A DNA stretch of 64,000 nucleotides from Botryllus schlosseri. Its lineage: Eukaryota. Both the position numbers and the translations under genes were made by a program. Under the pieces are notes generated by a model. The model saw nothing but the letters and a program-made list of their open reading frames with translations. It was not told where the DNA came from and searched no databases. Within the stretch, counting starts at the first letter, position 1, and every line of letters starts with the position of its first letter. Below are positions 909 to 49,372 of the stretch, piece after piece. The DNA is taken from contig CM119371.1 in assembly GCA_051294905.1 (NCBI GenBank), positions 19,966,001 through 20,030,000 on the forward strand. Direction: 5' to 3'.

Positions 909-1180
909 TTAAATAGTATATTCATATTGAAATGAATATCAACATCCGTATCACAAAATATGACGTCGCCAGCATGAAATATTGAATGAGAGAGCGTTCA
1001 ATGTACTATTTTTGGGTGGTACACGAACTCCTTTTTTGACAGAGTTTTGGGTGTTGTATTTTGATGAAATTCGACTCCAAGGCACACAAATGGAAGTGTG
1101 AACGGCCCCTCCGAACGACGCGAAATCTGTCGTCTCGATAATTATTCGTTAAAATCGGATTATCCAACAGATGTTTGCCA
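909..1180 (-). mobile_element. Penelope-like element 3' fragment (GIY-YIG C-terminus plus part of the pLTR)
   Basis: Close match to 36773-37118 (ttaaatagtatattcatattgaaatgaa...tcaatgtactatttt...tccaaggcacacaaatgg...ggattatccaacagatgtttgcc). The hammerhead segment is deleted in this copy. Confidence 0.8.
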
Positions 1181-1708
1181 GAAGTTGAGAGAACAAAAAG
1201 TCATTTTTAAACACCCCTAATGCTCACCTCAGGCCTAGAGAATGTAACGTAAGCAGGAAGGATATTGGAAGATCAGTATAGAATATACCATAAAATCATA
1301 TGTGACGTTATCATATCATGACGGACGTGATGTAACATAAGCCTGGATGCATATACTCACTTCCGATCGATAGCGGTCCTGACGTTCTTATGAGCAATTT
1401 GGGCGCCCTTACGGAAGCAATCCTGAGCTGCTTCTTCAATTGCCGAGGGTCCCGTTCCAACCAGATAGCGACATCCTTTATATTCTTGCCAATCCTTGTA
1501 ATATGCCTGGAATATCAAGGCACCAGGGAAAGACCATACTACGAGATATTGAAGGGTTCGCGGTCGCGGAAGTAAAAGAGAAATGCGAATACCACGAACC
1601 CGCCGCCACTAAGCTCCAGTTAAAAATTGGCAACAACAGAACAAATGCTGAGCACTTTTTGAACAAAAAGTATGCAATTCCTCTTGCAAACCATGTGATC
1701 CTCTAAAC

Positions 1709-13700: not shown

Positions 13701-14009
13701 GCAGTGGTTCTCAAACTGGGGGTCGCGAAGCTGAGCTCAACTGAAATTTTTTACGCGATAGACGCGATTTACATTCCATTCATTATTATTGCTCTGTACT
13801 TAGCCAGAATTTCAACTTTCAAAATCTCTCATCCACATTCGTAACCTTCCATGTCACAAAACTATCCTAGGGTTGCCATACGTCCGGAATTTCTCGGACA
13901 TGTCCGGAATTTCACTGTTAAAATTGCCTCCGGGAGGAATTTCTAAAACATGCCTAAATGTCCGGAATTTTGAAGTAAGCTCATAATTTTTTCCCAAATC
14001 TCTAGGGTA

Positions 14010-14603
14010 ATGAAAAAATCGGATACAGCTCCAAAATATGGCCCTGAAAAATGCCCGGCATTTTTACACCTACCTTGGCTAGGTAACGTGTCTAGCCGAT
14101 TTGAAAAGCTTATTAAATCGGCTGTCCACCGTTGCTATTACAGCGTTAACACGCATGTAGTGTACACGACGAAACCCTTGTTACCCAACTCTCGAAAAGA
14201 TGTACTTCCTGCCTTTGATGCAAGTAATGTTGTTTACCAATGCAAGTGCCACTGTGATAGTAGGTATGTAGGACGTACATCTCAAAGATTGTTTGAGCGT
14301 ATTAAGCAGCATATCCCAAAATTGATTCGGTCAAAAACATGCGCAAATGATCGCACGGAGCTCGCACGTCAGTGCAAATTGGCTGCAAAAACAGACTGCT
14401 ATGATGATTACCAAGCATATGCTTCGTCAATCGGTCAGCATCTGAGCGAAAACCTTGCCTGTGCACAGCACTATGATGACAATATGTTCACTGTCATTGC
14501 GCGTGGTAGGTCTGTGTTTCATTTAAAAGTGTTGGAGTCTACTATTATTCAGTTGAGCAAACCTATTTTATGTAGACAGAAAGATTTCCTCTATAACCTA
14601 TAA
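14010..14603 (+). CDS. Penelope-like element linker plus GIY-YIG endonuclease, 5'-truncated (RT absent)
   Basis: LHLPWLG (end of the RT thumb), NVVY-x-C-x-C...YVGRT-x-QRL-x-ERIKQH, SSIGQHL, LKVLES...LCRQK: typical PLE GIY-YIG motifs. Confidence 0.85.
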   Translation: MKKSDTAPKYGPEKCPAFLHLPWLGNVSSRFEKLIKSAVHRCYYSVNTHVVYTTKPLLPNSRKDVLPAFDASNVVYQCKCHCDSRYVGRTSQRLFERIKQHIPKLIRSKTCANDRTELARQCKLAAKTDCYDDYQAYASSIGQHLSENLACAQHYDDNMFTVIARGRSVFHLKVLESTIIQLSKPILCRQKDFLYNL

Positions 14604-14815
14604 ATTTCTCATTAGTGCGTGTTGTTCCGTGCGTGTAATTGTTTATTTACAAATTGTGCTGCTACTATAGTACCGTATGTCCGTATACTTCGTAGTTTGT
14701 TATTGTTGCCATTGATACAATGCGAATTTCATGGTCTGTGATTTTGATTGTTGCGTCATACTTTGCCTTTTTGGTTTTGCTTTTAAATCTGTTTAAATCC
14801 CTTCAGTGTGCCGAT

Positions 14816-14852
14816 AACTCTTGAAAAGAGGCACCCGAAAAGTCTTCGAGTT
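14816..14852 (+). ncRNA. Minimal type I hammerhead ribozyme, core variant U3-A8, in the PLE pLTR
   Basis: AACTC-TTGAAAA-GAGGCACCC-GAAA-AGTCT-TC-GAGTT: stem I AACTC/GAGTT, core UUGAAAA in place of CUGANGA, then GAAA and UH=UC. It lies downstream of the GIY-YIG ORF, like the canonical copies. Confidence 0.6.
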
Positions 14853-15698
14853 TAATAAATATACTGCTACAATGGATGTTGTATTGAAAGCTATATTCAA
14901 GTTCTGTACCACGAACCAGCTATTTAATCAACACAAACAATATTATTTTTAGGCAGATTTATGCTACATGAAATTCTTCTTCGCGCGGCGCGCGATTTAG
15001 TATCACATTTATTGGTTTTAATATGGGGACTACTACCCTCGCAAAAACTGCGATCAAAAATAAATAACAATAGCATTCATTACAGAAAGAAGTCTAATTG
15101 TAATCGCAATTACAAGATAACAGTATATTCACAGAGTCGGTTTAGGCCGTTTCGATGCTTTATTCGTAAACCTGTGGGTAGTTTTCCGTTATTATGGGGT
15201 TCGCGAAGATGTTGAACGTAATCAGCTTCAAAAATAGGCCATGAGTAAGTCTGGGTAAATGTGCCGACCTTTAATTAGTTATCAGCTTATCAGATTCTGA
15301 GCTGGCCACGGAATATGCTCAAATTTGAAATGGAGTCGCGACCATTGAAGGCTGGGAACCACCGGATGTGCGGTGTTTATATAGGTCAGTGGTGCATTGG
15401 GCACCGGCATTAGGCTGATAAATAATCTTATCAGTGTGACATGAACGATGTACAATTACGCTCCTTGCATTTTCGAAGTCACCATCCTCCACCAGCTCTA
15501 CCGCTAACTCTAATCATGTCGGAGGAGAGAGGATCAAATTATATAGTAATATACGGAAGAACCAATATTATTGACATAATTCAATAAAATCATTAGACAA
15601 CCAGATGCATATAGAAACCAGATGCATATAGTAACCCCCCAGAAGTTGCATTGATTACCCTACGGCGGGCCCAAGATCAGTGTTTATTTGGGCATGAG

Positions 15699-20940: not shown

Positions 20941-23900
20941 ACCCGTTGATATGACTTCGTTACATGATGTTATTTCATGACTTCCAGTCTCCCAGTAAAC
21001 ACAGTACAGACCAAAGATGTAGAAAGCCGAGCCCGATATAGTAGATATGAGATCTCGGCAGGTCGTAGAAAGGGGGATTTTGTGTCGACTCAATTCAATG
21101 TCTTTTCCATGTCCTTCAATAATGTAAATATTATGCAGATGCTACAGCCTTTAAACATGGTGAGTAGAATGTAGATCCTACATTAAAAGAATATCCTGAT
21201 ATAATAACCTGTTTTCTACCACTGGGCATAACCTGATCACCGCTGCGTACACACACACACACACCCCATTATCTACTACATATTAATCACATTTGCGGTA
21301 ATTTAATTCAAAACGAATTGGCAAGTAAATAATGCCGGTGTAAAAATTGAAACGAACGAAATTACTTGTAGGGCCAAGTAGCAATGAATGAAACTATGAG
21401 AACAGTCAGTAATCAGAAGGTTTCATCGTCTGATGATGATAATCCCTCTGGCGTTTTCTTTTCAACACCCTGTAAAATAAAATGAAAATGACGATTATTA
21501 GCTAAGACATTCGTACTGCGAAAATGGCAGAGGTAGCGAGTAACGAATGACTCCTACATTTTTTTCACCCATACTTACTAAAATGGATTTGATTCTGGAC
21601 TATTTCCACTCAAGTTTTCAAGTTTTTATTATTATATTTTTTATTATTATATGACTAGAGAACTGACTTCAATCGCCACTTCTACTTGATTATCAAGATC
21701 GCCACTAACACAAAAAGAATTTTTGACTAAAATTTCTTCACATTCTGTCAAAAATGATCAATTCAACAATCCAAATGAATCAGTTATTTCACTTATTTGG
21801 CAGCTAGTTGGAGAGATATATACTCAAGTCTAGAAAGTGGAGTGATACTCTGCCCGGAAAGCTGAAGACCTAACAATATTGTGTACAGAGAACAAAACAT
21901 TTGAGTGGCGGCACTGGTATAGACATTAACAAATTATTAGAATTGACAGCAAGATAACCAGCAAGACATTAAAATGAGAATTAGTGCAGTTTCTTAGGCT
22001 GTAGTGATACTCAGCCAGTAATTGACCTAGCAGAGAGCAAAACGTTGTAAAAAAAGCGAGCGAAACCTCCGGCAAATGATACGATAAAACATTAGAATCG
22101 ACAGTCTTACTAGAAGCAGAATAACAATCATGAGGGGTTAGAGAACAGAAGCCTGGGAAGTGACCATCGGAAATTACTGCATACTGGCCGAACAAATCCA
22201 TGACCACTAACAAATGGTCTTTTAATAGTCAATATTGATACCAAATGACACCACCCCTATTTCACCGCAACATTTAGCAAATACAGCGCTGGAGTCAACT
22301 TATAAAGCGCTAACCAAACGCCCATTAGTTTTCGCACCTACTACTTCGCGCTTCGCGGATGGAAATACGCATTAAAGCGAATGGACGCGACTTGTCACAC
22401 TCTTGCTATTTCTGCTCCCTTTTTCTCTTCCTTACTCTTGAGGAGAGAAACAGTCGGCCGCGTTTACGGATCGTGAATTCCCGGCTTAAGGGTGATTCTT
22501 CCTCCAATGGTCAGCACCTTGAAAATTGAGAACAATGTTGTTGCAAAATGCATGACAATTTGAAAGTTACATCATTCTAATTATTCCAGTTATGGCCGTG
22601 AATCGTTACAAGTGCGGTAACCATAAGAATTATTACTATACTTCAACTACAAATACAATATATTGTATAAAATAATTACTAATTCTTTTACGTTAATCGA
22701 GTCCCAAATGGATGAAATATGTCAAAGAATTTGCTAAATTTTTTCGTATAATTTGACAGATTCCGAAATCTTCGCAAAGTGCACCTTTCAAAAATTTGAT
22801 ATCAAGACTCCCAACATTTTACAATTCGAAGTTGGATGGCTTAACCAATACAAGCGAGCAGTTTGTATCGCAATTGACAATTATGTTGAAAACGCTGCGA
22901 GACATGTGAGTAGGCCTACCCTAAAACGTTTCTCTGACATGGACATTAGGGCTCTTAAAAAATGACTTTTTTTCTCAAATCGTTCTTGCTACTTGATAAA
23001 ATTGTTAGGTTACCTAATTCAAGCCTACACACCAAATTTGGTTCAATTCCAACCAGTAGCCGCATTGCTACAGGAAAAGAAAGTTTCTATTTATTATATA
23101 AAAATAAATAGAAAAAATTTGAAAATTTTCTGTTCACCCCATGAAAGTGTTAGGTTATGTATAGAAACGATGTTCATCAAATTTGGTTCGATTCAAACAA
23201 GTGGAAGTGGAGTTATTTCCATCGAAAAATTTGGATTTGAATAAAATAGTATTTACGGTGGGCTCCCCTATAATAAACTAATAAAGAATTGTGTCACGCT
23301 GTCATACTGTTTTACGCAACCGTTGTTATGCACTGCATTGTTGCTGTGTTCTGGCTCCATTGATGTTATTTCTAAATTCGACATTAATGCGTCATAATTG
23401 TCCATCTGGTTTTGAATTCAACTCTGTTTTGCTTCCTTTATGGTGCCGGTAGCTCTTTAATACGCACGCGAAAAGTTCTTCGGGTTTCAATAACGTTTAT
23501 CATGAAGGTACTTTTGAAAGCAGTATTAAAATTTTGTACCACCAACCAGTTATTTATTTACTATTTATCTTCAAAGTAAATGCTCATTGCATGAAGCAGG
23601 GTTGTAAGACTCGAGTCAGGATTTTCTGTTGACTCGACTTGACTCAGGTCATCTTCTCAAAGTACTGAAATGACTCGACTCATTGCGCATGACTTGAGAC
23701 TCAGACGGCCAAGACCGACATTTCATTATTATTTCAAAGAATAGTACAGCAAATCGCTATTGGGATTTCGTCTATTGATACTGGTATTTGAAAATGCGGC
23801 CAGAAACTGCTAAAAGTAAGGAAAATTCGTATATTATAAATGCGACCCACTCGATATCAAAAAAAATATATAAAAAGTCGGTTTAACAAGACTTAAATTG

Positions 23901-24407
23901 GAAACTGAGCAGCTAACACAATGACTCTGGCTCGAGTCATAATACCATAACTCGGACTCGGCCCTCTGCTCGCTGACTTGGACTCGGACTTGACTCGGTG
24001 GTGAATTGAAAATGACTCGAGTCAAAACTATAAAAGTGAGATTGACTTGCGACTTGGAGCCTTGTGTAACCGCTTGGCTCCGGAGCCATATTGACTCCGG
24101 ACTATCTGGTTGCAAGACCAGTCATGCGTAGGGTAACACAGGTATTGAAAAGAGGAAGTGATTGGAGTCTTTTGTATGTAGTTGGATTGGAGTTGGGTTC
24201 GGTATGGAGTTGGTCTTGGAGTATCTTTGTGTGGAGTTGTTACTGTGTTAAGTCTTGGATTGGATCGGAAGTATTGATGTGTTTATTGTGCCTGCCTTTG
24301 TTGTAATATATCCGTCGAATCTGCAATGTGTCTCTGGTTCCAGACGAACCTGAAGTAATATAGCCGCATTCAGTTAGATAGCGAAGACTACGACCGAACG
24401 GCTACAA

Positions 24408-25079
24408 ATGGCGAGCACGCAGCCTGATGCTGGATCCGGTAGAGAGATGCCGCTTGCAGTAGGAGACGGATGCGGTGGACTTGAAGCATGGCAGTTGTTA
24501 AAGAGGAAAGAAGAAGTTGCACTTGCACGGTTTTTTAACAAGTTAGCAAAAGGGATGCTTGGGAAGGAAGCGCGACAAATTGTGAAGTTATTGGACACTC
24601 GTGCTGTTGGGAAAATGGATCATGTGGCACGTGGTGACTTGGAACAGGTGTCGGTATGCTCGTCTGTTGGAAACTCTGTTGTTGATGTGACCTTGCAAGA
24701 GGAGGATTTTGAAAAACCGCATGTAGAGGAAATCGTTCATGATAATGTGTTGGCATATGAGAATAAAATAAATTCAGTGACTGAAGAGATTTTTACTGCA
24801 CCTGTTAATGATGATACTGATACTGATGATGATGATGATGATTGTCAAGGTGAAGAAAGAGGTGTGATGGAGGAACAATTGGCTGAAGATTGTGGAGGTG
24901 AAAGTGCTACAGTGGCTTCGTCAATTGGGAACATGGGCTTGGTTGGTCGAGAAGTAAATGTATTGGATATATTTGGTATTTTGAAGTTGTTGGTGGACTG
25001 TAAGCTGGCCATTGAACGTGTCAATGTGAATGTAGCGGAGCCGTCGCACCGTAAAGCTTTTACTTCGAGAGATATTTGA
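24408..25079 (+). CDS. Acidic 223-aa ORF inside the LTR element, function unknown
   Basis: The ATG overlaps the PBS. The product is D/E-rich with a poly-Asp tract. No gag CCHC, protease or RT motifs were recognised. Confidence 0.35.
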   Translation: MASTQPDAGSGREMPLAVGDGCGGLEAWQLLKRKEEVALARFFNKLAKGMLGKEARQIVKLLDTRAVGKMDHVARGDLEQVSVCSSVGNSVVDVTLQEEDFEKPHVEEIVHDNVLAYENKINSVTEEIFTAPVNDDTDTDDDDDDCQGEERGVMEEQLAEDCGGESATVASSIGNMGLVGREVNVLDIFGILKLLVDCKLAIERVNVNVAEPSHRKAFTSRDI

Positions 25080-25840
25080 GCGATATGATGGGTCATTGGG
25101 ATTCGACACCGGACTTGGACTACGCCCCTGATATTGAGATGTTTGAACTGTTATATTGATTTGATAATGAACTGCGATTGTTGATGGGTATTGACACCTC
25201 GTGTTTTTGTTTGTTGTTGGCTTGGTTTTTTGGCGCACGGTGTTATGTTGTGGGAAACTGTCTGTCGCAAATAGTTGCTTTTACGTTGTTGGTGGATTGA
25301 GTATGTTGTTTTGTATTTTGACAGTTGAGTGAACTTTTGAAGATATTGGGATGGCTGTCTTTACGTTGTTGGAGGATATTATGAAATTTTGTATTACTGG
25401 CGGTTGTAGGACGTTGTAACTGGTTTTGCATGATCATATTTCTTTGTACATATTCTTGCCACTTTTATACTTATTTTTTATTTGTGCTCCCTCTTGTCGC
25501 TTGTGAGTGATCTTTTACTACTAGATCACTCAACTTGGGAACGGGGATGTGTAACCGCTTGGCTCCGGAGCCATATTGACTCCGGACTATCTGGTTGCAA
25601 GACCAGTCATGCGTAGGGTAACATGCGGTATTGAAAAGAGGAAGTGATTGGAGTTAAGGGATCGCCAGACAGGACGCCTATTGCCGAAAACCTAACCTAT
25701 AGCCGAAGCGCATCGGTTTTCGGCTATCGGCAGGCTTTCGGCTGGCTTTCGGCTTTCCGCTTCATTGGTGTGTATCGGACCGCGTTTTCGCGGGCCGAAC
25801 AAAATATGGTTGCGATCAAAACATTGTTGACTGACTGGAA

Positions 25841-26698
25841 ATGGACGCGCAAGGAGCATTGGAAATGGACGTGGAGTTGGAGGACGGTGACATTGAGTCG
25901 TTATTGGCAGCAAGAATATCAAAGGGATTCCAAGAGAAGTGGGATTGTCCAATGTGCCTTGGTGCCATTGATGGAAAACATATTACCATTGAGGCCCCTG
26001 CCAAGTCGGGATCAGAATTTTATAACTACAAGGGAAATTATAGTATTGTGCTTCTCGCTGCATGTGACTCACAGCTTTGCTTCACTCTGGTAGACATAGG
26101 TGATTCGGGGAGACATAGTGATGGTGGCGTATTTTCGAATTCGACCTTCGGAAGTAAGTTCATGAATGGTCAACTAAATGTGCCTGATGATGGCTGCCTA
26201 CCTGGGACAGATGTACGTGTTCCCTACGTCATAGTTGGAGATGCGGCATTTCCATTCCGCAGGAATCTGATGAGACCCTATCCCGGCAAACAATTACCAT
26301 CGCACAAATCTATTTTCAATTACCGATTATCACGTGCACGGCGTGTCATTGAAAACGCATTTGGCGTGATGGCAGCGCGGTGGAGAGTGTTCCGGGGCAC
26401 CATTACTGCCGAGCCCAAACTTGCCACTGACATTACGAAAGCTGCATGTTGTTTGCACAACTTCTTGCAGCTAAGATCCTCGTGCACACTCTCAAACCTT
26501 GGCATCGCACCAGCCACTTCCAGTGATTTTGGAGGCCCTACAACCACTTCTCAAACCGGGACCACGTCTCGAACTGAGAGACTGGGGTCCAATATGTACA
26601 GCAACGAAGCAAAGGAGGTGAGGGAGAAATTTACCAATTACTTTATGAGCAATATTGGCAGAGTTGCATGGCAAGAAGCAGTGGTAAATCGCGTGTGA
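25841..26698 (+). CDS. Harbinger DDE transposase (HARBI1-like, DDE_Tnp_4), N-terminal HTH region missing
   Basis: CLGAIDGKH, FYNYKG, GRHSDGGVF, VIVGDAAFP, FNYRLSRARRVIENAFG, CCLHNF. Only ~35 aa precede the catalytic domain. Confidence 0.9.
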   Translation: MDAQGALEMDVELEDGDIESLLAARISKGFQEKWDCPMCLGAIDGKHITIEAPAKSGSEFYNYKGNYSIVLLAACDSQLCFTLVDIGDSGRHSDGGVFSNSTFGSKFMNGQLNVPDDGCLPGTDVRVPYVIVGDAAFPFRRNLMRPYPGKQLPSHKSIFNYRLSRARRVIENAFGVMAARWRVFRGTITAEPKLATDITKAACCLHNFLQLRSSCTLSNLGIAPATSSDFGGPTTTSQTGTTSRTERLGSNMYSNEAKEVREKFTNYFMSNIGRVAWQEAVVNRV

Positions 26699-30245: not shown

Positions 30246-31194
30246 ATCAAATGCACAGCATATAAATAGGCCTGTCACTGCATACAAGAAAATATGAGTA
30301 AAAACAATAGGGCCCTTTCCATCACAAGAACTGAGCCCCAACATATTATATCTACCGATCTATCTATCTATCTATATCTATCTATCTATCTGTATATTTA
30401 TCAATGATTCAATATACCAACATATCTGGTGCCATGATTGCCGACCATCTCATATTGTTCTCAACAAGTACCGGTATACAGTGCGGTAAACAATATTGGC
30501 ACTGTACTCCACTACAATTGAAGTAAATTAGTACTGTTATTTCAAACAACAACGCCACTGCCACAGCATCTCTTCTCCCTGCGATTCACAACACTCAACA
30601 AAACATCGCCCAGCAAGCCAAATACGACTGAAGCACACGGTGAACGACCAGCCGTCGGCGCCGATAGCCGATAAAGTTAAAAATATTTTAACTCGATTCG
30701 CGCCGGTAGGCTTTCGGCCAGGCTCGCGAAAAACGAGAGAACGCTTCTTCGTACGCGACCTGTCTGTATCGCATAGGTTTTCGGCTATCGGCTAGGTTTC
30801 CGGCTATAGGCTAGGTTTTCGGCAATAGGCGTCCTGTCTGGCGATCCCTTTAGTCTTTTGTATGTAGTTGGATTGGAGTTGGGTTCGGTATGGAGTTGGT
30901 CTTGGAGTATCTTTGTGTGGAGTTGTTACTGTGTTAAGTCTTGGATTGGATCGGAAGTATTGATGTGTTTATTGTGCCTGCCTTTGTTGTAATATATCCG
31001 TCGAATCTGCAATGTGTCTCTGGATCCAGACGAACCTGAAGTAATATAGCCGCATTCAGTTAGATAGCGAAGACTACGACCGAACGGCTACACTTGTGAC
31101 TTGGTTACAACCCTGGCATGAAGCCTCAATAGTTACATGAGTGGGGTGACTAGACAAAGAACACAGTGACATTTGCAGCATATTATGAATGTCT

Positions 31195-36506: not shown

Positions 36507-36799
36507 ATATTTACGGCATTTACCATACAGAAAGAGCGAACTATGCCTGGCTGCGACCTAGCTGTTGCGCGTCAAATCTTTGTCCGGCGCGATGACGTAA
36601 AATTTGAATCGCCGAAATATTCTAGAAGTCACGCATCGATAATCATATTCCTAAACGTACAACATCTCACTTATTTAGTTATTCTCTGAATAAAACTATT
36701 AGCCATACTCGTTGAACATGCGAGATTACCGAAAGAGCGAATATATATATAATGAAGATCATATATATCAGATTAAATAGTATATTCATATTGAAATGA

Positions 36800-36833
36800 A
36801 CCCGAATATTTTCGGCTGACACTCGTCAGGGGT
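36800..36833 (-). ncRNA. Minimal type I hammerhead ribozyme
   Basis: Reverse complement ACCC-CTGACGA-GTGTCAGCC-GAAA-ATAT-TC-GGGT: canonical core and palindromic helix III region AATATT. Confidence 0.8.
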
Positions 36834-37273
36834 AATCGTCAGCAACTAGCAGAGAATTGGAAAGAACATTGTATGTCAACAATCGTATCACAAAATATGA
36901 CGTCACCAGCATGAAATTTCGAATAAGAGAGCGTTCAATGTACTATTTTTAGGTGATACACGAACTCCTTTTGTTGACAGAGTTTTGGTAGGTGTATTTT
37001 GATAAAAGTTGATTCCAAGGCACACAAATGGAATTGTGAACGGCTTCGACCTACGATTCGAAATCGGTCGTCTCGATAATTATTCGCACAAATCGGATTA
37101 TCCAACAGATGTTTGCCGATGGCAGAATTAATTGCCTTTGATCGATCAGCATCAATCTTAAGTGGATGAGTTAAGGGTGAGCTTGTCACATCGCGTGACG
37201 CACGTGTTCTGATAAATCTGGGGACATGTTGGTTTATGCGGTCCTGCAGACGTCTTGACGTTCTTCCAACGTA

Positions 37274-37306
37274 GCCCTGACGAGTGTCAGCCGAAAATAT
37301 TCGGGT
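37274..37306 (+). ncRNA. Minimal hammerhead ribozyme in the inverted pLTR (stem I shortened)
   Basis: CC-CTGACGA-GTGTCAGCC-GAAA-ATAT-TC-GGGT. Confidence 0.7.
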
Positions 37307-38175
37307 TCATTTCAATATGAATATACTATTTAATTGTATATTGAAGTTCTGTACCTCCAAGAAGCTCTTCAAATATATATCAGAAGAAAACAAAACTGTT
37401 CGACCTTAGAGCAACAACACGAATATACAACACCGGTGACATCCTCACGCAATAAAACGAAGGGAGAACATTGTTTTCTAATGGATAGACCGAAGCTACT
37501 GCATGAGATCGAACAAAACCGGATGGGAATTCATCGTGATTGAATGTACCGACAAAGTCATCCTTTCTACGTATTTTAGTCATACCAGCGAGAGATAGAA
37601 AATTTGCATTATTAGGTTAACTACCGGATATAACGAAGCCTAATGCATGAGATGGAACAACACCGAGTATGAATTTATTCTGATTGAATATAACCACAAG
37701 ACCATCCTACTACGTATTTTAGACATTCCCTCGACACTTAGAAAATCAGAACCTAATCGAGATGTTCCCGGATGATCCTTTTACGGTTTTGTGTTTGCTG
37801 GGGCTGTTATATCAAAAAATATAGAATCGCCCAAACGTAGGCTTCTAAACTAAGGCTGCGTTCATCGTTTGTTTTGATACCTACTGTGAAACCAGTCGTC
37901 AAAACCAACCCGTTCACATAGCATGAAGTTCTCGAACCAGTACGAAATTTTGGCGTTCACACTCGAGTGATTTTGATATCTTGGCCTCAAAACATGAGCG
38001 TTCATACTTCAGCGTGGTTACGAAGACTAGCCGTTTTGCGGGCTCGTTATCGGGCTATTTAACGCGACGTTACATCTGCGGTGGACGGTATTTTGGCGTT
38101 GGTGCGAGATTCGTCAAACCTGCTCTCCAACCTGGTTTGGGCGTGCGCTGACTATCCAATATCTTTACAGAGTAG

Positions 38176-48152: not shown

Positions 48153-49372
48153 TAGGGCGATTTTTTTTTGACATGTCAAAAAAAGTCAAAATTAGGTCAA
48201 AATTGTAGCATTAGGTCAAAATTTGTCAAAATTGTTCACAAAGTCAAACATTTTTTGACCTCTGAATTTCGTTTGTATCGTAGATTTTGCGCTGTCGGTG
48301 AACTTATCACTTGATATTTTACAGCTTGTAGCCTATACTTTATAGGCCTGCCGTTGTAAACGACCCATCGTCTGCTCATTGTGAGTCATAAACGATCAAA
48401 TGAAACAAATAGTGACATGGTTTTATGGTCAACGTACCGCAATATCTTAACTGAAGCAAGACTGCTTGGACATTGCATGTTTCTTATATCAAGAAGCGCA
48501 AGCTGAAAAATTGTGATATAGACAACATTGTCAGAATGAAGCACCAGCAGTGTACACACAACTTCAGTGTTGTCAGCCAACAACCGCTGCTGTTTAACGT
48601 TCTTTCTCCATTCTTGGCAAGCTACTCAGTAAGGACAAACACTTTCTACCCGAGAATGTAGGAAAGTAAGATATATTTCGTTCGTTGTACTACAACAAAT
48701 TTTAATTATTTCCACCATAATACGTAATGTAACTACTGGAATTCTTCATAGGGCCAGATTTCGTTAAAATACTCGTTTTTTCATGGGCTTCTTGGAGGTA
48801 CAGAACTTCAATATACAATTGAATAGTATATTCATATTGAAATGAACCCGAATATTTTCGGCTGACACTCGTCAGGGGTAATCGTCAGCAACTAGTAGAG
48901 AATTGGAAAGAAAATGGTATATCAACAATCGTATCACAAAATATGACGTCACCAGCATGAAAGAGATAAAAGTCGACTCCAAGGCACACAAATGACGTCA
49001 TATTTTGTGATACGATTGTTGATATACCATGTTCATGACGATACCATGACGATTACCCCTGACGAGTGTCAGCCGAAAATATTCGGGTTCATTTCAATAT
49101 GAATATACTATTCAATAGTTTTTTCATGTAAAAATTTGCCAGTTTTTGCGCCCAAAACTTTTTTTCAGGCCAATCTACTTTTTAAGGACAGACAGTTCCA
49201 ACCAGAAATGAAGATAAGTAGTACAATTTTGACATTATGTGCGAAAACACCTAATTTGCATACGTAAGGTCAAAATTTGGTCAAATTTCAGTTTTTTTAG
49301 GTAAAAAAATGTCAAAATTTAGATTTTTTAGGTCAAAATCTTCCGTTTTTCAGGTCAAAAAAAATCGCCCTA
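48153..49372. mobile_element. hAT MITE with GTCAAA repeats
   Basis: TIR TAGGGCGATTTTTTTT(T)GAC; perfect TSD TTTATTAT. Confidence 0.88.
48786..49116. mobile_element. Palindromic Penelope pLTR remnant with two opposed hammerheads (48846-48879 minus, 49055-49088 plus)
   Basis: Near identical to 36773-36915 and 37275-37368; arms 48820-48887 / 49047-49116 and 48914-48951 / 48993-49030. Confidence 0.85.

Follow-up and report, generated by a model that had tools for sequence, protein, structure and literature searches.

Sequence comparisons support the identification of a homologue of the Penelope-like element (PLE) pLTR hammerheads, a predicted ribozyme, at positions 14816-14852 of the window, the 64,000-nucleotide stretch of Botryllus schlosseri DNA analysed here. 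The reading that we favour, with moderate confidence, has four parts: the motif is a minimal type I hammerhead in the pLTR of a truncated PLE; its core carries U3-A8 family-wide; this state was reached via a U-G wobble; and the RNA is predicted to cut weakly.

Architecture of the motif

Unless a strand is given, all features lie on the forward (+) strand. The core, UUGAAAA at 14821-14827, spans hammerhead positions 3 to 9, with U3 at 14821 and A8 at 14826. It is flanked by stem I, which comprises five Watson-Crick pairs between a 5' strand at 14816-14820 and a 3' strand at 14848-14852. Stem II is a single pair, G10.1-C11.1, which closes a 7-nt loop (G14828 to C14836) and is G-C in 7/7 aligned sequences. 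Next come G12-A13-A14 and stem III, which is 2 bp long and capped by a near-palindromic loop (14837-14846, with GAAA at 14837-14840); this segment, which has a central U-U, is the predicted dimer interface. Hammerhead numbering places C17 at 14847, predicting cleavage 3' of this residue at the U14846-C14847 site.

The type I layout is present: stem I is open, and core positions 3-9, stem II, GAAA, stem III and NUH succeed one another in that order. The pairs G10.1-C11.1 and A15.1-U16.1 are in place, as is H17; stem I is perfect, and every core position other than 3 and 8 is intact. The canonical CUGANGA core is absent at 14821-14827. Positions 3 and 8 are Watson-Crick-compatible as U-A, and UUGAAAA is the published U3-A8 exception.

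Several comparisons bear on whether this arrangement is a hammerhead. A loose descriptor gives UUGANAA-type matches at 6 window positions and, being so permissive, carries no evidential weight. A strict descriptor, drawn up after the motif had been seen, has 14821 as its sole match for the UUGAAAA core and matches none of 300 dinucleotide shuffles. A profile derived from loci of other organisms (4 rows) matches 14801-14911 with an E of 8.7e-10; it contains no window rows, its columns come from an alignment that had held them, and the matched stretch takes in the repeated ORF start described below. Finally, over both core and stem II, the motif aligns gap-free with the canonical CUGACGA motifs of the window. 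This alignment also led to rejection of a register with G14828-A14829 as G8-A9. A two-pair stem II (14830 with 14835), suggested by a decayed copy at 23458, fails in the other families. The Rfam hammerhead families match neither 14816-14852 nor the window's canonical motifs, making that test powerless here. Together, the sequence itself, the strict descriptor, the profile and the gap-free alignment confirm what the original prediction had read from the letters: stem I as AACTC/GAGTT, the GAAA, the UC, the UUGAAAA core and the placement in a pLTR.

A truncated Penelope-like element hosts the motif

Sequence and loose read ends delimit the host as a 5'-truncated solo PLE of ~930 bp (13997-14929) inside another repeat. 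The two element ends share one four-letter sequence (13997-14000 and 14926-14929), possibly a target duplication or microhomology. In the public runs X1, X21 and X11, loose read ends before 14926 look like the 5' flank and represent the uninterrupted host repeat. The 5' end of this interrupted repeat (13867-13996 and 14926-15000) presumably resembles a terminal inverted repeat of the hAT type.

Of the PLE ORF, the copy retains the C-terminal portion for the GIY-YIG endonuclease (14001-14603), open to the stop codon within a stop-to-stop frame at 13974-14603, and has no RT. By itself this endonuclease fragment gives no significant Pfam match. The frame has 87 longer homologues, all RT + GIY-YIG proteins or C-terminal parts of such; many carry RT (PF00078), some carry GIY-YIG (PF01541), and the best is 87% identical. 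Judged from these homologues, the EN+ PLE trait of a C-terminal GIY-YIG on an RT-bearing ORF is present. So is a pLTR that repeats the ORF start downstream of the stop codon. Between the stop and this repeat lies the pLTR or 3' untranslated part bearing the motif (14604-14871), and related loci are laid out alike. The repeat itself opens with ATG at 14872 and covers codons 1 to 18 of this ORF (14872-14925), forming the end of the pLTR, or tail; 14/18 residues are identical to the N-terminus of P0009, a full-length RT-EN protein. As it holds one motif only and no RT, the solo copy is itself likely inert.

Other PLE copies occur in the window. A second family carries canonical C3-G8 hammerheads, detected by descriptor and profile, at 36800-36833 (- strand) and at core starts 37278 (+), 48875 (-) and 49059 (+). 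Its pLTRs stand as head-to-head pairs at 36756-37372 and 48797-49129, canonical at C3-G8 and with the same predicted pseudoknot as described below, and an endonuclease remnant of the family lies at 36950-37273 (-). Profile and alignment also identify a decayed pLTR of a related family at 23388-23556, which includes the decayed copy at 23458. It is 72% identical, keeps the repeated ORF start and has U3 in a damaged core whose position 8 is unscorable. A further PLE endonuclease remnant is found at 1030-1188 (-), with 43% identity over 53 residues. Elsewhere, a 241-nt exact direct repeat (24166-24406 and 30852-31092, 6,686 bases apart) encloses a G-skewed stretch; ORFs at 24378-26698 fall within it, and the whole may be a young element bounded by terminal repeats.

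A covarying helix joins the 5' flank to loop II

The original prediction overlooked the combination of a one-pair stem II with a loop that pairs to the 5' flank. A flank strand at 14808-14812, ending three bases upstream of stem I, is complementary to loop II at 14830-14834 (-6.9 kcal/mol). Across four families, comparative analysis shows a covarying helix between 5' flank and loop II: of its 6 pairs, 5/6 have two-sided changes, and 95.2% of cells are paired. For the whole structure, the covariation score is 0.56 versus 0.18 in shuffled alignments; 0/500 shuffles reach it, and slid controls do not exceed 0.083. The set behind these values comprises 7 hand-picked rows, the structure was read from the same rows, and L063, together with the decayed and 37278 copies, was excluded for poor alignment. 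As the helix crosses stem I, it would be a pseudoknot if the hammerhead folds.

Energy calculations do not discriminate, since the canonical motif behaves similarly: folding recovers the hammerhead neither for 14816-14852 nor for the canonical window motif (z = -0.22). The minimum-energy fold (-5.7) is a core-sequestering hairpin at 14818-14830, and the hammerhead fold without the pseudoknot is at +6.0. The flank/loop II helix forms the main stem of the minimum-energy fold of 14801-14860. The near-palindromic stem III and loop give a self-duplex of -1.5 kcal/mol with the central U-U, against -0.2 in the canonical window family and -4.3 kcal/mol in the related U3-G8 family introduced below.

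Reads place A8 in the family

The state of positions 3 and 8 beyond this one copy was read from four public runs (X1, X11, X21 and X23) aligned to 14400-14990 at 80% likeness. In DNA run X1, which may be the source sample (13,783 contigs aligned), G8 at 14826 accounts for 90/145,153 of summed contig depth, or 0.06%. G8 is likewise seen in 0/106 reads of RNA run X23 and in 0/17.3 in run X11. In single-cell RNA run X21, G8 occurs in 301/594 reads, alongside many other differences; these are probably divergent U3-G8 copies from few loci, and are taken as U3-G8 because no C3 row of similar weight is among the rows listed. A8 is thus the family state, not the decay of one copy.

For position 3, T14821C (C3) is absent among the 40 variant rows listed for the four runs, beyond which there are 153 further rows, and the decayed relative at 23458 likewise has U3. 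U3 as the family consensus is indirectly shown in this way. The proposal that UUGAAAA is the family consensus accordingly stands directly for A8, which dominates in X1, and indirectly, through the decayed relative, for U3.

The same alignments were inspected for signs of RNA processing. Over 14400-14990, molecule starts or ends are nowhere concentrated in the two RNA runs, as they would be in a cut-site pile-up, and the runs show no RNA splice joints. A pyrimidine tract at 14760-14806 ends in AG (14805-14806), ten bases before stem I, and resembles a 3' splice site; divergent RNA reads begin matching at 14805-14807, as loose ends. Some of this sequence recurs elsewhere: about 62% of sampled words from 14000-15000 are found in runs whose labels name three other organisms and a seawater metagenome. 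One contig of run X11 matches 14400-14898 with 4 differences, for which contamination, close kin and transfer are all candidate causes.

Relatives span a series of 3-8 pair states

A protein-based scan of metagenome contigs, with 21 of 64 parts covered, recovered at least 68 loci, and a profile search of these loci and the window gave 65 homologous motifs. At positions 3-8 the 65 profile matches comprise C-G (10), U-G (51), U-A (1), U-C (1) and U-U (2); C3-A8 is never seen among them. Setting aside the 14821 motif, 61/64 have C-G or U-G. C3-G8 is held by L005, L063 and the four window motifs, among others.

A related metagenome family provides 57 of the rows: 51 are U3-G8, one of these lacking 3 nt of its core; 4 are C3-G8, 1 is U-C and 1 is U-U, and none is U3-A8. 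After flank collapse, 45/56 usable rows are distinct, with two duplicate pairs left, and divide into 40 U-G, 3 C-G and 2 other. Members of this family (among L001-L068; for example L065:83-141 and L048:1335-1393) mostly have U17, and their start codon lies inside stem I. G5, A6, G12, A13 and A14 are kept in the family majorities. On its sequences, this is an abundant natural family of predicted wobble-core hammerheads.

With U3-G8 in 51/57 rows of this family and no U3-A8, U3 does not need A8. This bears on the original prediction that the two substitutions represent covariation rather than decay. The part of the claim that opposes decay is borne out by the family-wide A8 (G8 in 90/145,153, X1), whereas obligate coupling of the two changes is contradicted by these 51/57 rows and by Saccoglossus kowalevskii(1), a published PLE representative with U3-G8 (Fig. 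S3, PMC4209133). The absence of C-A, together with the C-G, U-G and U-A states among the 65 matches, fits a wobble path, and U3-A8 is likely the end of a stepwise route from C-G through U-G to U-A. We infer this order, since the endonuclease tree cannot order the families: in 35 rows and 113 columns, built without named PLE reference elements, the U-A, U-G and window C-G families sit in an open fork.

Pattern scans for the U3-A8 family motif gave 0 matches both in viral contigs and in contigs of prokaryote genomes. Protein-based locus searches found 0 loci in viral contigs and 2 short loci in genome contigs, neither with a profile match; one of these, L069, stops 23 bases past its protein match.

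Comparison with known hammerheads

The U3-A8 core in PLEs is already in print, and the motif belongs to a described class. Cervera and De la Pena (2014; PMC4209133) report ~1,300 U3-A8 motifs in the Cercyon PLEs of Schistosoma mansoni, found since their first descriptor had missed this core, and their S. mansoni(4) (Fig. S3) has the same seven core letters as 14821-14827. The expectation that CUGANGA searches miss the U3-A8 family holds here, given the UUGAAAA core and the lack of an Rfam match, and had been voiced for PLEs in that 2014 paper. Published PLE minimal hammerheads, which show weak dimer cleavage, share with the present motif the pLTR site, type I topology and a short stem I; their vestigial stem III is palindromic, and that of the present motif is near-palindromic (PMC4209133). 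In the set of Fig. S3, they mostly have a helix II of 3-8 bp plus an additional nucleotide separating positions 9 and 10.1 (PMC4209133); the present motif, in contrast, has a single G-C helix II, no extra base and a loop that pairs with the 5' flank. The long helix II and the unpaired base after position 9 are descriptive consensus traits rather than catalytic requirements.

Precedent for the unusual features comes from outside PLEs. Perreault et al. (2011; PMC3088659) report that U3-A8 is natural and active in vitro, with C3-G8 to U3-A8 covariation in nature, and that a one-pair stem II is active, the pseudoknot being essential. In those hammerheads a pseudoknot takes the place of the loop-loop contact, as is predicted here. 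The one-pair example tested was, however, a metagenome type II ribozyme, whereas the present motif is type I, resides in a eukaryotic retrotransposon and has a 2-bp stem III (PMC3088659). A deep mutational scan of a type III hammerhead reports that at 3-8 only a G:C swap is active, with all other changes low (PMC9901934).

The Poseidon element of Anolis carolinensis (PAc) resembles the present case in having a pLTR hammerhead that adjoins a start codon and, as reported, a cut site at which RNA-seq reads do not end (PMC11167929). It differs in its C3-G8 pair and in that protein-assisted cleavage has been demonstrated, whereas cleavage of the 14816 motif is predicted (PMC11167929). RNA-seq libraries also missed a proven PLE cut site (PMC11167929). 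Craig et al. (2021; PMC8557442) treat PLE hammerhead function as unclear.

As for the flank pairing, the abstract of Luense 2017 reportedly names interactions of loop II with the segment preceding stem I as a common feature. The literature searched, which did not include that paper, the likeliest source, yielded no description of a PLE hammerhead combining a one-pair stem II with a pseudoknot. Such a pseudoknot in PLEs, or rates for U3-G8, may have been covered by Luense 2017 and Przybilski 2007.

Proposed mechanism and alternatives

If the favoured reading is correct, the element RNA would fold into a compact type I hammerhead and cut weakly after C14847. The flank/loop II pseudoknot would hold stems I and II together, substituting for a normal stem II. 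Such support could prop a weakened core, allowing C3-G8 to drift to U3-G8 and then to U3-A8. Two units might pair via the near-palindromic stem III to form a dimer, or the PLE protein may assist cleavage; the fold, its pseudoknot, the dimer, this assistance and the cut after C14847 are all drawn from precedent. Cleavage there would shorten precursor RNA at a point 24 nt upstream of the start codon.

The main alternative, itself unlikely, is that the motif is a dead or dispensable relic throughout the family. The C3U and G8A changes would then be common transitions that relaxed selection allowed to become fixed in a master element, and would be complementary by chance. Such a history would suit the related family, which has proliferated with U3-G8 (40/45 flank-distinct rows) and mostly U17, as well as anole PLE hammerhead mutants with unimpaired insertion in vitro (PMC11167929) and Naiad PLEs that thrive without canonical hammerheads (PMC8557442). 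It would also suit the missing cut signal in the RNA runs and the competing hairpin at 14818-14830, which covers the core. The remaining core positions, however, are intact, as are stem I and G10.1-C11.1. Moreover, the pseudoknot helix still pairs through many two-sided changes across families with widely differing endonuclease C-termini (at most 57% identity in the case of the second window family), and pairing kept despite such divergence argues for continuing selection on the fold. That selection could itself be non-catalytic, the fold serving PLE protein binding, marking of a splice acceptor or start-codon control, with flank/loop II an ordinary hairpin and 3-8 loosely constrained. The helix is indeed the main stem of the minimum-energy fold, divergent RNA reads begin matching at the AG of the pyrimidine tract (14805-14806), and the related family has its start codon inside stem I. 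The RNA runs show no splice joints, however, and the catalytic G5, A6, G12, A13 and A14 are retained in family majorities, and we regard this explanation as improbable. Mutation of a single copy, in a family whose core is canonical CUGANGA, has very little probability left. The second window family is C3-G8 and position 3 is not directly readable from the variant rows listed, but the 0.06% share of G8 in X1 largely refutes this explanation for position 8, and the decayed relative also has U3.

Implications

The favoured hammerhead reading has a broader, tentative extension that we consider possible though doubtful: the PLE clade may hold an evolutionary series on one scaffold, defined by a one-pair stem II, a flank pseudoknot of 5-6 bp and a dimer stem III, in which the core is buffered by the pseudoknot and the 3-8 pair moved from C-G through a viable U-G to U-A in spreading families. 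Natural homologues with C-G, U-G and U-A at 3-8 on one compact pseudoknotted scaffold offer a direct test of core tolerance. The same set of homologues lets one ask if cutting is required of PLE hammerheads in the first place. If true, the wobble-path series would provide a natural system, already in place, for testing how fitness valleys are crossed by a catalytic tertiary pair.
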